Shown here one piece after another: positions 26,669 through 59,995 of a DNA stretch of 64,000 nucleotides (position 1 is the first letter of the stretch; every line of letters begins with the position of its first letter). The notes under the pieces were generated by a model. That model did not search any database. It had not been told where the DNA came from and saw only the letters and a program-made list of their open reading frames with translations. Made by a program: the position numbers and the translations under genes. This DNA is from Paludibacteraceae bacterium (GTDB taxonomy: Bacteria; Bacteroidota; Bacteroidia; Bacteroidales; Paludibacteraceae), in the NCBI GenBank assembly GCA_016937795.1, contig JAFGVV010000065.1, forward strand, positions 6,429-70,428, given 5' to 3'.

Positions 26669-26698
26669 CCCTCCCCTTGGGGGAGGGTTAGGGAGGGG
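26669..26698. repeat. G/C-rich REP-like palindrome CCCTCCCC-TTG-GGGGAGGG-TTAGGGAGGGG
   Basis: 8-bp perfect stem plus a G-rich tail, 1 nt from the BCCP stop codon. Confidence 0.75.
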
Positions 26699-26699
26699 C

Positions 26700-27287
26700 T
26701 TACACGTCAATCGACTGAATTTCAACCAAAAGTTCGTCTTTCATAACCGATTGTCCTGTCTGTACTTTGATTTTGCGTATCACTCCGTTGCAGTTTGCCG
26801 TAATTTCATTCTGCATTTTCATGGCTTCCAGTGTAAGTATGGGTTCGCCCTTGTTTACCAGATCGCCTTCGGCCAGAAACAAATCTACAATTTTCCCGGG
26901 CATGGGTGCAATGATATTGTTTTCGTCAATTTTGTTGGCATCGGAATTAATCATTCCGCGACGAACATACGAAAAAATAGATTCAAGACTGAATTTATAT
27001 TCCACACCATTCACTTTTATGACGGCTTTGTTTTGGTCGCGCGACACAAGTTCACAGTGAAAGCGTTTGCCTTTCCAGTCGAAAGCGTAGTGCAGATCTT
27101 CCTGTTCCACAAAGTCAATGTCGAGCTCATGACCGTTAATTACAGGGTTCGACTCTTTTGGAATATAAAGTTTGAAGCGTTTGCCATTGTCGCGAAGCGC
27201 AATGAAAAGTCGCGATGCATCGCGTTTGTATATATATGAAGTTCCCATACAGGTATTTACAATTTTATTATCCGCCACGGCGGACAT
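26700..27287 (-). CDS. Biotin carboxyl carrier protein with an N-terminal extension
   Basis: APMPGKI and EAMKMQNEI biotinylation motif. Confidence 0.92.
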   Translation of the reverse strand: MSAVADNKIVNTCMGTSYIYKRDASRLFIALRDNGKRFKLYIPKESNPVINGHELDIDFVEQEDLHYAFDWKGKRFHCELVSRDQNKAVIKVNGVEYKFSLESIFSYVRRGMINSDANKIDENNIIAPMPGKIVDLFLAEGDLVNKGEPILTLEAMKMQNEITANCNGVIRKIKVQTGQSVMKDELLVEIQSIDV

Positions 27288-27338
27288 GTTTTACAATTTA
27301 CAATTAGCCAATCAACTGATTATCTGAAATGCCATTTA

Positions 27339-28844
27339 TCAGTAATTCAGTCTCTTATTAAGTACCCAAACGTTCAAACGATCGCTTTTGTAACTTGGAA
27401 TGTCCGAAGAAAGTTGCAAATATTCAGAAGCATACATAATAGTAGCAGCCAATGCGCCAATCATTTCTTCTTCTTCGTTTTCGAGCATTTCGGGTGTGAA
27501 AACTGAATCGACCCAACGCGTGGTGTAGCTTGCATCCACAAAATCGGGATGTCTGAGTACTGTGCGACAAAACGGAACTGTGGTTTTCAGACCAATCATC
27601 GTGAAATTCTCGAGTGCGTTCAGCGTTTTTTCAATCGCATCCTGACGCTCGGTGCCATGTACAATGATTTTCGCTATCATCGAATCGAAATACGGAGTCA
27701 CCACAGCGCCACTTTGCACACCTGTTTCAATACGGATGTGGTCGCCGGTCGGAAACTGAATCTTGTCGATAAAGCCTGTTTGTGGACTGAAACGATTTTG
27801 CGGATCTTCTGTATTGACGCGGCATTCGATGGCCCAACCATTTAGTTTTATATCGTTTTGTGTAATTGTGAGTTTTTCGCCAAGTGCCACACGTATTTGC
27901 CAATCGACCAAATCCACACCTGTAATCATTTCGCTTACAGGATGTTCAACCTGAATGCGCGTGTTCATCTCCATAAAATAATACGAACCATCCTCATCCA
28001 TAATAAATTCGATGGTTCCTGCGGAATAATAACCAATGGCTTTTGCAAAACGCACAGCCATTTCACCCATTTCTTTCCGCATTTGTTCGGTGACTGATGC
28101 CGAAGGAGCTTCTTCCACAATTTTTTGATGTTTGCGTTGAAGTGAGCATTCACGTTCGCCCAAATGAATCACATTACCGTGTTTATCGCCCATTATCTGA
28201 AATTCAAGATGTTTAGGGTTTTGCAGATATTTTTCAATAAACATATCGCCATTGCCAAATGCGGCCAATGCTTCGTCGGATGCTGATTTGAACTGACGTT
28301 CAATGGTTTCGGGTTTTTCCACAATGCGCATTCCGCGTCCGCCACCACCAGCCGAAGCTTTCAAAATTACGGGATAGCCAATGCTGTCGGCAAAAGTTTT
28401 CGCAGCAGCTGCATCTTTCACAGGGCCGTCGCTGCCGGGCACCAATGGCAAACCGGCTTTAATAGCCATGCTTTTAGCCACAGTTTTCAGTCCCATGTCG
28501 CGAATAAGTTGTGGCGATGGACCGATAAAGTTGATGCCGTTATTTTCACAAAGCAGTGCAAAATCAGGATTTTCAGATAAAAACCCATAGCCCGGATGAA
28601 TCATGTCAATTCCGTGTTCGAGCGCCAGTTTTACAATTTTTTCGGGATTCAGGAAAACCGGTTTCTCATCGCCGGCATCTTTTGCCGGAATCACTTCGTC
28701 GGCATATTGCAGGTAAAGCGCATCCGGTTCGCGGTCGCTCTGAAAAACCACCGCTACTATTCCCAGTTTGTGTGCCGATCGGATTATGCGAATAGCAATT
28801 TCGCTTCTGTTTGCAATTAAAAGTCTTTTTTTCATTCGATTCAC
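27339..28844 (-). CDS. accC: Biotin carboxylase subunit of an acyl-CoA carboxylase
   Basis: IANRSEIA, HPGYGFLSEN, KASAGGGGRG, ERECSLQRKHQK, EMNTRIQVEHPV and FDSMIAK. Confidence 0.93.
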   Translation of the reverse strand: MNRMKKRLLIANRSEIAIRIIRSAHKLGIVAVVFQSDREPDALYLQYADEVIPAKDAGDEKPVFLNPEKIVKLALEHGIDMIHPGYGFLSENPDFALLCENNGINFIGPSPQLIRDMGLKTVAKSMAIKAGLPLVPGSDGPVKDAAAAKTFADSIGYPVILKASAGGGGRGMRIVEKPETIERQFKSASDEALAAFGNGDMFIEKYLQNPKHLEFQIMGDKHGNVIHLGERECSLQRKHQKIVEEAPSASVTEQMRKEMGEMAVRFAKAIGYYSAGTIEFIMDEDGSYYFMEMNTRIQVEHPVSEMITGVDLVDWQIRVALGEKLTITQNDIKLNGWAIECRVNTEDPQNRFSPQTGFIDKIQFPTGDHIRIETGVQSGAVVTPYFDSMIAKIIVHGTERQDAIEKTLNALENFTMIGLKTTVPFCRTVLRHPDFVDASYTTRWVDSVFTPEMLENEEEEMIGALAATIMYASEYLQLSSDIPSYKSDRLNVWVLNKRLNY

Positions 28845-28884
28845 TTTAAAAAGTATCGTGTTCTTTTATTTATCAGGGTTGTTT

Positions 28885-28943
28885 GACAAAGGTCAAAGGT
28901 CAAAAGTCTAATGTCTTTTGTCTTTGCTCTTTGTTCTTTTGTC
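28885..28943. repeat. Head-to-head arrays of a 6-7 nt CAAAG/CTTTG unit separated by 4 nt
   Basis: GACAAAGGTCAAAGGTCAAAAGTC-TAAT-GTCTTTTGTCTTTGCTCTTTGTTCTTTTGTC. Confidence 0.8.
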
Positions 28944-28946
28944 TCT

Positions 28947-30482
28947 CTAAAGCGGAATACTTCCGTGTTTTCGTGCCGGTTTGTGATATTGCTTGTTTGC
29001 CAGAATTTCGAAAGCAGTAATCAGTATATTTCTGGTATCGGATGGGCGTATTACCTCATCGATCAATCCAAACTCTTCTGCTTTATATGGATTCGCTACT
29101 TCATTTTTGTATTTCTCAATAAGCTCACGTTCCATTTCGGCTTTGTTTTCAGCGTTTTTCAGTTCGTGTTTATTGACAATTTTGATTGCACCCCCGGGAC
29201 CCATTACTGCAATCTCGGCTGTAGGCCATGCAAAGTTAAAGTCGCCGCCAGTGTTTTTGCTGCTCATTACAATGTATGCGCCTCCGTATGCCTTGCGTGT
29301 AATCACTGTGATTTTTGGAACAGTTGCTTCGCAGAATGCATAAAGCAGTTTGGCGCCGTTGCGGATAATGCCGTTGTGTTCCTGCTCAATGCCCGGCAGG
29401 AATCCCGGAACATCTTCAAGAATGAGCAATGGAATGTTGAAAGCATCGCAGAAACGAACGAAGCGTGCACCTTTCACGCTGGCATTTATATCGAGTGTGC
29501 CGGCCATTACTTTAGGCTGATTGGCTACAATACCGATTGACTTTCCGTTGAGGCGGGCAAAACCAACCAAAATATTTTGGGCGAATTTTTCGTGAACCTC
29601 AAAAAAACTGTCTTTATCTACAATAATATTAATGACTTCCTTCATGTCGTAAGGACGGTTGGGGTCATCGGGAATAATTTTATCAAGAAACTCCTGACGC
29701 GAGCTGTACATGCTTACGCGGTTCGATACAGGAAGCGTTTCGTAATTGTTCGAAGGAATGTAAGAAAGCAGTTTGCGAATAAGCATAATGGTATGCTCTT
29801 CGTCGTCGGAAACAAAATGTGCCACACCACTTTTCGAGGCATGTACATTTCCGCCGCCAAGGCCTTCCATGTCAATTTCTTCGTTAAGTACTTCGCGAAC
29901 CACATCAGGACCGGTTACAAACATGTATGAAGTCTGATTGGTCATAAAAATAAAATCGGTGAGGGCAGGTGAATATACAGCGCCACCGGCTGCAGGGCCC
30001 AAAATGGCCGAGATTTGCGGAATAATACCCGACGACTGCACATTGTTGCGGAAAATTGATGCATAAGCCGAGAGACTTTTTACGCCTTCCTGAATGCGTG
30101 CTCCACCCGAATCCATAAGACCAACGATGGGAGCGCCCAGTTTTAGTGCCATTTCCTGCACTTTTGCAATTTTCATTCCGTGTGCATAGCCCAGCGAACC
30201 TCCAAGTACAGTGAAATCCTGAGCGTAAGCAAATACGCTGCGTCCCTGCACAAGTCCTCTACCAACCACTACGCCATCGCCAAAGTTCGATTGTTTACTG
30301 CTCATTGGCGTTTGCGCAGGAGCTACAAAAGCGTCGAGTTCGAAAAATGTACCTTCGTCGAAAAGTATGTTGATACGTTCGCGTGCTGTCAGTTTTCCTT
30401 TCAAATGCTGACGGTGTGCCGCATTATCTTCTAACTCCTGCAAAGTTTTTAATCTTTGCCCGAATACTTCGTTTTTATTCAT
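28947..30482 (-). CDS. Acyl-CoA carboxylase carboxyltransferase (beta) subunit (propionyl-/methylmalonyl-CoA type)
   Basis: GKLTARERI, QDFTVLGGSLG, DSGGARIQEG, GPAAGGAVYSPALTDF, DVPGFLPG, RKAYGGAY and KHGSIPL. Confidence 0.93.
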   Translation of the reverse strand: MNKNEVFGQRLKTLQELEDNAAHRQHLKGKLTARERINILFDEGTFFELDAFVAPAQTPMSSKQSNFGDGVVVGRGLVQGRSVFAYAQDFTVLGGSLGYAHGMKIAKVQEMALKLGAPIVGLMDSGGARIQEGVKSLSAYASIFRNNVQSSGIIPQISAILGPAAGGAVYSPALTDFIFMTNQTSYMFVTGPDVVREVLNEEIDMEGLGGGNVHASKSGVAHFVSDDEEHTIMLIRKLLSYIPSNNYETLPVSNRVSMYSSRQEFLDKIIPDDPNRPYDMKEVINIIVDKDSFFEVHEKFAQNILVGFARLNGKSIGIVANQPKVMAGTLDINASVKGARFVRFCDAFNIPLLILEDVPGFLPGIEQEHNGIIRNGAKLLYAFCEATVPKITVITRKAYGGAYIVMSSKNTGGDFNFAWPTAEIAVMGPGGAIKIVNKHELKNAENKAEMERELIEKYKNEVANPYKAEEFGLIDEVIRPSDTRNILITAFEILANKQYHKPARKHGSIPL

Positions 30483-59456: not shown

Positions 59457-59506
59457 GATTTGAAAATTTGAGATTTGAAGATTTGAAGAATTTGAAGATT
59501 TGAAGA
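59457..59506 (+). repeat. Left arm: six tandem ATTTGA(A/G)-type 7-9 nt units
   Basis: GATTTGAAAATTTGAGATTTGAAGATTTGAAGAATTTGAAGATTTGAAGA, starting 4 nt after the lacI stop. Confidence 0.9.
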
Positions 59507-59537
59507 ATAGAGAGGTGCGAAATTAAATCAATATATT

Positions 59538-59936
59538 ATGGCTACATATAATCGATTTGAAGATTTGGATGTTTGGAAGAAATCCCGAACAATGTGTAAG
59601 AATATTTATATTATAACAAAGAAGTCTGCCTTTTCAAGGGACTATGCTTTGAAAGATCAGATTCTTCGTTCCTCGGGTTCTGTAATGGATAATATTGCTG
59701 AAGGGTTTGAACGCGAAGGCAATAAAGAATTTATAAATTTTCTATCAATTGCAAAAGGATCGTGTGGTGAGACTCGTTCACAGTTATATCGTGCATTTGA
59801 TTTTGAATATATCGATAATAATGAGTTTAAAGAATTGATTGAAGAAAATATAGAAATAGCCGGATCTATCAAAAATTTTATGAGTTACCTGAAGAATGCA
59901 GATATCAAAGGAAATAAATTTAAAACGGCAGAATAA
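59538..59936 (+). CDS. Four-helix-bundle protein (23S rRNA IVS protein / Avd-like family)
   Basis: [46 protein letters not shown] and YL at the C-terminus; 132 aa. Confidence 0.93.
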
Positions 59937-59962
59937 ACAAGCATAATTTCGGGTTACGATAA

Positions 59963-59995
59963 TCTTCAAATTTTCAAATTACAAATTTTCAAATT
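59963..59995 (-). repeat. Right arm: four tandem TTCAAAT-type units, an inverted copy of the left arm
   Basis: The reverse complement matches 59457-59489 at 29/33 positions; it ends 7 nt before the MFS start codon. Confidence 0.9.

Follow-up and report, generated by a model that had tools for sequence, protein, structure and literature searches.

Introduction

The STRR1-3 repeats of Mazel et al. 1990 are reportedly three fixed heptamers. The 23S rRNA intervening sequences of Coxiella burnetii and Leptospira contain an ORF (S23p / PF05635), and their stems are cut by RNase III. In the cyanobacteria Anabaena, Nostoc and Lyngbya, an STRR heptamer hairpin lies between hupS and hupL, and a role in transcript stability or translational coupling has been proposed for it (PMC2670836). 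Long simple sequence repeats (LSSR) have units of 5-11 nt (Mrazek, Guo and Shah, 2007, as summarised in PMC4679880), and intergenic arrays of the heptamer TAACTGA have been described from Beggiatoaceae, Cyanobacteria and five Bacteroidetes, including Paludibacter propionicigenes (MacGregor, 2015, PMC4679880). Heptamer arrays, and an STRR hairpin between subunit genes, are therefore already known, and the locus described here adds another case.

The locus is a 62-base hairpin, formed by two facing runs of a 7-base repeat, in the spacer between a carboxyltransferase gene and a biotin carboxylase gene. Its host is a Paludibacter metagenome-assembled genome of the Bacteroidales (3.74 Mb, 40.7% G+C; labelled G000 where it has to be told apart from others). 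Positions given without a contig label refer to the window, the whole stretch of 64,000 nt that was analysed.

Results

A gene-less hairpin in a carboxylase operon

The operon is read from the minus strand. The carboxyltransferase gene (mmdA/PccB-type, E 2.8e-215) occupies 28947-30482, the biotin carboxylase gene (E 7e-180) follows downstream of the hairpin at 27339-28844, and the gene for the biotin carboxyl carrier protein (BCCP) comes after it at 26700-27287, also on the minus strand. An earlier note on this DNA had placed the repeats between the first two genes; both could be identified, both are on the minus strand, and so is the mRNA. The true start of biotin carboxylase is probably the ATG at 28835, which gives a spacer of 111 nt between the two genes. 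The carboxyltransferase stop codon is a TAG (28947-28949, or 28949-28947 in reading order), and the heptamer array begins at the next base.

On the plus strand, TRF reports CAAAGGT in 3.1 copies at 28887-28908 and TGTCTTT in 4.7 copies at 28912-28944, with TAAT between them, so that sequence and TRF agree on the facing CAAAG and CTTTG arrays that the note had described at 28885-28943. In mRNA order, the TAG is followed by AGAGACAAAAGAACAAAGAGCAAAGACAAAAGA (4.7 heptamers of the GANCAAA type), a short centre (CATTA) and GACTTTTGACCTTTGACCTTTGTC (GACYTTT heptamers). The 5' or left arm (28914-28946, minus strand) belongs to the GANCAAA / AAAGANN family and consists of the 4.7 heptamers AGAGACA AAAGAAC AAAGAGC AAAGACA AAAGA; the 3' or right arm (28885-28908, minus strand) belongs to the GACYTTT family and reads GACTTTT GACCTTT GACCTTT GTC. 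The two arms are thus made of different unit families, and it is the CTTTG cores of the right arm that pair with the CAAAG cores of the left. No ORF lies between the arms, as the note had also said, and the predicted loop, ACAUUAGA (28907-28914, minus strand), is only 8 nt long; the orthologues L031 and L032, described below, have kept this centre. From the hairpin to the probable ATG at 28835 runs a unique A-rich leader (28836-28884, minus strand), which is single-copy in the host genome and kept in both orthologues. The 40-nt 3' tail of the spacer was likewise single-copy when searched with blastn-short in the host genome.

The predicted stem-loop (28886-28934, minus strand) is interrupted, with helices of 6, 5 and 6 bp (17 bp in all) and small internal loops between them. 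As RNA, a segment of 101 nt folds at -15.6 kcal/mol (z -2.98); as DNA, a segment of 71 nt reaches z -6.1 on the minus strand and -4.9 on the plus strand; in each case 0 of 200 shuffles matched the fold. The imperfect mRNA hairpin that had been claimed holds up as a fold, but not in its position 3 nt after the stop, for the array starts at +1 and the predicted stem 12 nt past the stop, at 28934. The three-unit AAAGANN pattern AAAGANNAAAGANNAAAGA has its sole occurrence in the 64-kb window at this locus (expected 0.03). Taken alone, each arm has a TRF score of just 37-38, and about one in eight arrays at such a score is expected by chance.

An intrinsic terminator was considered and rejected: no minus-strand site is predicted at the hairpin, and the stem is A/U-rich and has no U tract after it, being followed by AAACAACCC. 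No sigma-70 promoter was predicted at the hairpin by a tool that does not cover Bacteroidetes-type promoters, and inspection of the carboxyltransferase-biotin carboxylase spacer by eye revealed no TAnnTTTG. Rfam returned no match at gathering score for the whole window and one chance-level match (E 3) for 28700-29100. Matches to Rfam MIR8024, which appeared in searches of the window, the locus and eight copies of a composite element (see below), lie below the gathering score and were set aside as low-complexity artefacts.

Both remaining junctions of the carboxylase operon also carry short-repeat modules. One base past the BCCP stop, at 26669-26698, is a second head-to-head hairpin, CCCCTCCCTAACCCTCCCCC-AA-GGGGAGGG (of the CCCCTCCC/GGGGAGGG type); the host genome has about 140 occurrences of the related motif CCCCTAAAGGGG, counted together with its complement. 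The spacer between biotin carboxylase and BCCP (27288-27338) contains TTGATTGG/TAAATTG units and the palindrome GTCCGCCGTGGCGGA, and in L031, which is 96.6% identical, this spacer is wholly replaced by a CCCCTAA/GGGG-type element and the biotin carboxylase stop codon also differs. A palindrome of about 20 nt, (c)ttGTCCGCCGTGGCGGAt, is found at 27271-27285 (minus strand) and at 17 further loci of the host genome, inside tandem arrays of various unit types; it is missing from the orthologous spacer of L032 and was therefore inserted in the host genome. It overlaps the longest-ORF start of BCCP, whose true start is probably the ATG at 27248.

The same junction in other genomes

We collected the carboxyltransferase-biotin carboxylase junction from 19 genus genomes and 76 named Paludibacter-like genomes, for a total of 95 junctions with 85 distinct spacers. 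Twelve of the 85 are tight (9-20 nt); read directly as empty sites, they run 9-19 nt from the stop to the conserved ATG. Another 63 measure 61-300 nt, a class that includes the spacer of the host genome. Because the tight junctions include those of the most distant genomes (carboxyltransferase identity 75-78%), tightness is most simply the ancestral state. Comparison of the spacers indicates that the hairpin is an insertion that widened an ancestrally tight junction (9-20 nt) to 111 nt. The start of the array directly at the stop codon may be a simple consequence of insertion into so short a spacer.

Many of the long spacers have a short-period array right at the stop, facing an inverted partner, and its unit varies by species (TTAGTTAA/TTAACTAA, CCCCTAA/TTAGGGG, GATTAGTG/CACTAATC, ATTCATA, TTTACGA and ATAAAGTT). 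TRF arrays are present in 30 of the 73 spacers of at least 25 nt, and nearly all have a period of 7 or 8. The junction of L107 holds a single large insert of 1111 nt that encodes an IS-type transposase.

Inspection of this junction in relatives, which the earlier note had proposed, found no small-gene insertion: a four-helix-bundle or GxxExxY gene is present in 0 of the 95 junctions, and a tblastn search of all 95 with the six four-helix-bundle proteins of the host genome (E<=10) produced no gene remnant beyond noise. No target-site duplication is visible at the hairpin junction, either in the alignment with L031 and L032 or against the empty sites.

History of the hairpin in two close relatives

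The same hairpin is present in Paludibacter sp. BF4_173 (L031; 96.6% identical over 5.7 kb) and in a more distant relative (L032; 88% identical). All three have the unique 40-nt 3' tail and a common centre (CATTAGAC or CATTTGAC), and they fold round the same loop. Their arms have changed by larger steps: the left arm of the host genome is without 21 nt (three heptamers, GATAAATGTCAAAAGTCAAAG) that are present in L031, the L032 hairpin is without the entire GANCAAA block, and the right arms of the three are separated by several substitutions and a 6-nt indel. Between the host genome and L031/L032 the arrays show 28 differences in 60 alignment columns, compared with about 2 per 60 in the coding flanks, and the indels include one of 21 nt and one of about 30 nt. 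These alignments show that the hairpin has been inherited since before the split from the 88%-identical species, and that it changes rapidly as whole units are gained, lost and homogenised, with every version keeping its predicted fold round one loop.

The same alignments show that the right arm was first partnered by an AAAGTC/AAAGGAC array, partly lost in the host genome through the 21-nt deletion. With this deletion the GANCAAA array next to it came to face the GACYTTT arm, a rearrangement that explains the regular 2-nt mismatches in the stem. The right arm of the host genome (GACCTTTGAC) differs from that of L031 (GACCTCAGAC) by two adjacent substitutions, CA to TT, so that CTTTG again faces CAAAG. 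The right arm also differs between two close genomes at another locus of this design (G000 C48:39657, compared with G074 C12:66188).

Short-period arrays across the genome

TRF finds 1722 arrays of period 5-12 in the host genome, 764 of them in the intergenic approximately 12% of the sequence. Analysed alone, the intergenic regions yield 686 such arrays, where dinucleotide shuffles give about 178; at the score reached by the hairpin arms the figures are 337 and about 42, and at scores of at least 50 they are 124 and at most 1. The reservation in the earlier note, that such arrays might be no commoner than chance, does not survive these counts. Arrays are held by 506 of 2084 spacers, or about a quarter of those of at least 20 nt, with no preference for operon-type junctions, and TAACTGA-like units are also present among them. 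The hairpin belongs to this population of STRR-like arrays of short period, several hundred in number, which occupy roughly one in four intergenic spacers of its genome.

Arrays of the AAAGANN family number 56 in the host genome. Half of them (28) follow a gene on the same strand, and 17 of these 28 start no more than 11 nt from the stop. An inverted partner stands next to no more than about 6 of the 56, and members of this family are therefore not usually found as hairpins. We took the census of paired arrays by duplex energy; pairing TRF arrays by shared 6-mers misses the hairpin itself, because its arms come from different unit families. By this measure 62 arrays pair with their own flanks at -20 kcal/mol or below, compared with 17 that do so with the flanks of other arrays. 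Over 66 spacers (p 0.95) and 24 cassettes (p 0.47), the antisense strand folds as strongly as the sense strand, and these sets do not bear the G-U signature that selection on the sense RNA would leave. Given this lack of strand asymmetry, the complementarity could equally be a property of the DNA.

Many AAAGANN arrays open a composite dispersed element, whose modules run in the order [AAAGANN]n, a conserved core of about 45 nt, (AAATCTTC)n and [CTGAAAC]n. The core, AAAGACTGTTGGTCGCGTGATTAATTGAGAATCACTTCCGAAA (which contains …GTGATTAATTGAGAATCACTTCCGAAA…), includes a small hairpin, GTGATT/AATCAC. About 28 copies of this element are found in the host genome (e.g., C21:21611, C61:91977, C43:52577, C21:38501) and none in the window; 15 of the 22 in co-directional junctions are in sense orientation, and the element has no Rfam match.

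A gene for a RAYT-like Y1 transposase of 153 aa (gene at C5:63908 of the host genome, within C5:62408-65752, locus L111) has multiple classical REP copies, GCTCCGTAGGAGCGACATTATGGTAG, on both sides. This REP is a different repeat, so the RAYT/REP system is separate from the tandem arrays. An assignment of the hairpin to REP/REPIN-RAYT elements was rejected, as no genome but one has more than two copies of its centre motif and the RAYT-like gene is flanked by an unrelated REP. MITEs were also rejected, the hairpin having no conserved terminal inverted repeats, target-site duplication or near-identical copies.

Small-gene cassettes with repeat arms

The host genome encodes six TIGR02436 four-helix-bundle proteins and five TIGR04256 GxxExxY proteins. 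Four of the six four-helix-bundle genes are flanked by tandem arrays in inverted orientation, with a unit particular to each gene, and the architecture of the hairpin is the same as that of the cassette at 59457-59995 in the window, as the note had observed. The same unit families form the hairpin and the inverted arms of the four-helix-bundle and GxxExxY cassettes, which therefore have building blocks in common. A cassette at C22:163.2-163.64 kb, with a four-helix-bundle gene in the junction between mutA and mutB, has AAAGANN/TCTTTNN arms and contains a 23-nt string identical to part of the left arm of the hairpin. We rejected this identity as a specific link to that cassette: the 56 AAAGANN arrays are built from about six unit variants and include three exact copies of the 23-mer, so the resemblance is at family level only. 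The left arm of the C22 cassette is complementary to TTCTTTR units, a family to which the right arm of the hairpin, GACYTTT, does not belong.

We surveyed the mutA-mutB junction in 94 genus genomes (G000 C22:162684-164142; loci L115-L164). Some genomes have empty sites of 8-19 nt. Others have a four-helix-bundle gene with AAAGANN arms, an orthologous gene with GAACCAA-GAGTCAA/TTGGTTC-TTGATTC arms, GxxExxY genes with ACACNAAGAC/GTGTCTTAGTG or GAACGCAAAGAC/GCGACTTAGCGTTC arms, or an ORF6N-like gene beside which the old right arm survives; elsewhere the junction holds unrelated gene-less arrays. Two loci are true deletion remnants, L138 retaining both arms and the first ~55 nt of a GxxExxY gene, and L150 the last ~15 nt of a four-helix-bundle gene together with a TCTTTNN arm. 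Inserts of 1.6-2.2 kb occupy this junction in several genomes.

In a matrix of duplex energies, left cassette arms pair with right arms of their own type at -24 to -48 kcal/mol and with those of the other type at -17 to -25, the exception being the very long right arm of L126. Since own-type arms pair much better, the cassette arms covary across ~400 nt, and their complementarity is actively kept, by selection or by arm-to-arm correction. We found no description in the literature of such arrays used as covarying cassette arms in operon junctions.

Two further features of the cassettes were seen. At C22:163150-163200, and at the equivalent positions in L139, L151 and L156, a small hairpin stands just past the four-helix-bundle stop (e.g., CAAAGAC-gaaagtattt-GTCTTTG); the right arm begins with the 3' half of this hairpin and therefore has two alternative partners. 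Two four-helix-bundle genes of the host genome (C43:6386-7222 and C22:119528-120548) are accompanied by very long arrays (of the TTAGTTAA and GAGTATT/GAGTTCT types), which beside the gene are direct, not inverted, repeats, with inverted partners further out.

Discussion

We think it somewhat probable that the hairpin is a gene-less, insertion-derived stem-loop built from two short tandem-repeat modules, GANCAAA facing GACYTTT, which resembles the STRR and probably acts in the operon transcript. Because it lies inside that transcript, its most likely effect is that of a moderately stable stem, which would form close behind the carboxyltransferase stop. The ancestrally tight junction was probably translationally coupled, and the stem could uncouple the two cistrons. 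Alternatively, it may be a processing site or a site that protects the 3' end and stabilises the message, by analogy with the hupS-hupL STRR and the 23S rRNA intervening sequences, or the complementarity may be kept at the DNA level, through correction within a DNA hairpin or conversion between the arms.

The earlier note had favoured two other origins, of which one was a footprint: a four-helix-bundle or GxxExxY cassette would once have occupied the site, its gene would have been deleted, and the two arms would have collapsed together. Remnants of exactly this kind exist at mutA-mutB (L138 and L150), and the left arms of the hairpin and the C22:163 kb cassette have 23 identical bases in common, although three exact copies among 56 arrays are what family membership leads one to expect. 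Set against the remnants at mutA-mutB are the absence of a gene from all 95 orthologous junctions and of any tblastn remnant (E<=10) beyond noise, a loop of just 8 nt, and a right arm of the GACYTTT family where the TTCTTTR family would complement the cassette arm. The orthologues, moreover, document a different history, in which L031 and L032 show an older left partner (AAAGTC/AAAGGAC) that was partly removed in the host genome by the 21-nt deletion. We see no sign in these alignments that a gene was ever lost at the hairpin locus, and we consider such a loss very unlikely. The other origin, a MITE-like derivative, belongs to a broader possibility, that of a non-autonomous element (MITE-, REPIN- or IVS-like) moved in trans by a protein, perhaps one that recognises structure, with the gene cassettes as its autonomous forms. 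Mobility would suit the sites that are empty or occupied by unrelated hairpins in other species, the neighbouring biotin carboxylase-BCCP spacer that was wholly replaced between 96.6%-identical genomes, and the three small genes (four-helix-bundle, GxxExxY and ORF6N-like) that alternate with empty sites at mutA-mutB. The hairpin itself, however, lacks conserved termini, a visible target-site duplication and near-identical copies, and its 40-nt tail is single-copy. Its centre motif, AAAGWCATTWGWCTTT, has 20 matches in 13 of 102 genus genomes, barely above the 15 for a reversed control, with at most 2 per genome save in one genome with 6; no candidate enzyme is linked to the arrays, and the sole RAYT-like gene that we examined sits with a different, classical REP. 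We therefore regard an element of this kind as unlikely, and the MITE-like version in the earlier note is not borne out.

A neutral origin was also weighed, in which slippage made two microsatellite-like arrays grow side by side, A-rich and T-rich and so incidentally complementary, with neither function nor mobility. Slippage is the process to which the LSSR work of Mrazek ascribes 5-11-nt repeats (as summarised in PMC4679880), and it would account for close relatives that differ by whole units, for the many AAAGANN arrays that have no inverted partner, and for the lack of strand asymmetry in folding. It does not readily explain why three orthologues keep a hairpin round one conserved loop though both arms have changed, why the CA to TT change in the host genome restores CTTTG opposite the CAAAG cores that the deletion brought there, why orthologous cassette arms covary over ~400 nt, or why arrays pair with their own flanks well above control; growth from a spacer of 9-20 nt would also leave the unique 40-nt tail unexplained. 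Slippage with incidental complementarity seems to us quite unlikely, and we retain the reading of the hairpin as an inserted, STRR-like stem-loop.

A wider and more speculative proposal, which we hold to be doubtful though worth stating, is that a single class of mobile insert, defined by structure and independent of sequence, exists in two states, the gene-less hairpins and the gene-bearing cassettes (four-helix-bundle, GxxExxY and ORF6N). Such inserts would settle in tight operon junctions, their arms would be rewritten in concert by arm-to-arm correction, the small proteins would act on the arrays, and what is seen in Cyanobacteria, Beggiatoaceae and Bacteroidota as STRR and heptamer arrays would be their debris and building blocks.

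By itself, a small non-coding element in a metabolic operon is of modest interest. Its value lies in being a clean and datable example, with a known empty site, three orthologous versions and changes by whole units, of how short tandem-repeat modules colonise and remodel the tight operon junctions of Bacteroidales. The comparison also ties long-unexplained heptamer repeats (STRR, LSSR, TAACTGA) to the arms of cassettes that encode 23S-IVS and GxxExxY proteins. If the pairing is functional, inserts of this kind would offer a means of setting the relative expression of operon genes that is both widespread and fast to evolve; if it is kept at the DNA level, they would indicate a novel mechanism by which arms evolve in concert or inserts move.

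Several known systems share part of this design. The 23S rRNA intervening sequences resemble it in their flanking inverted repeats, which form a stem within the transcript, and in their sporadic presence and absence among relatives, and the gene-bearing relatives of the hairpin carry the same protein family (TIGR02436). The hairpin likewise has inverted tandem arms and a polymorphism of empty sites (12 of 85 spacers), but it lies in the spacer of an mRNA operon and not in rRNA, its arms are tandem-repeat arrays, it has no ORF, and no internal TIGR02436 or TIGR04256 gene or remnant occurs at the 95 junctions. With REP, BIME and REPIN elements it has in common that it is a small extragenic palindrome after a stop codon within an operon, assembled from mosaic modules, and that an mRNA-stabilising role has been proposed for such elements; unlike those associated with RAYT, it has no conserved palindrome sequence. 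The LSSR and TAACTGA arrays are similarly over-represented, of short period, mostly intergenic and often abutting start or stop codons, and the shorter spacers of relatives are free of arrays; they differ in being direct repeats, with one inverted case, and their description includes no hairpin arrangement, arm covariation or cassette link (PMC4679880). A link to four-helix-bundle or GxxExxY cassettes is absent from the descriptions of both the STRR (PMC2670836) and the heptamer arrays (PMC4679880).

The cyanobacterial STRR differ from the hairpin in their host, which here belongs to the Bacteroidales, in that many unit families coexist in this genome, and in that the arms of the hairpin are drawn from two different families. 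The likenesses are those of layout. As in the STRR and LSSR, the repeats have a period of 7 (3.1 and 4.7 copies), lie wholly within a spacer and belong to a class that is over-represented genome-wide; as in the STRR, tandem units of 7 nt, with many copies per genome, occupy the intergenic space between two subunit genes of one enzyme operon and form a hairpin between the cistrons. The closest known analogue of the carboxylase hairpin is the STRR heptamer hairpin between hupS and hupL.
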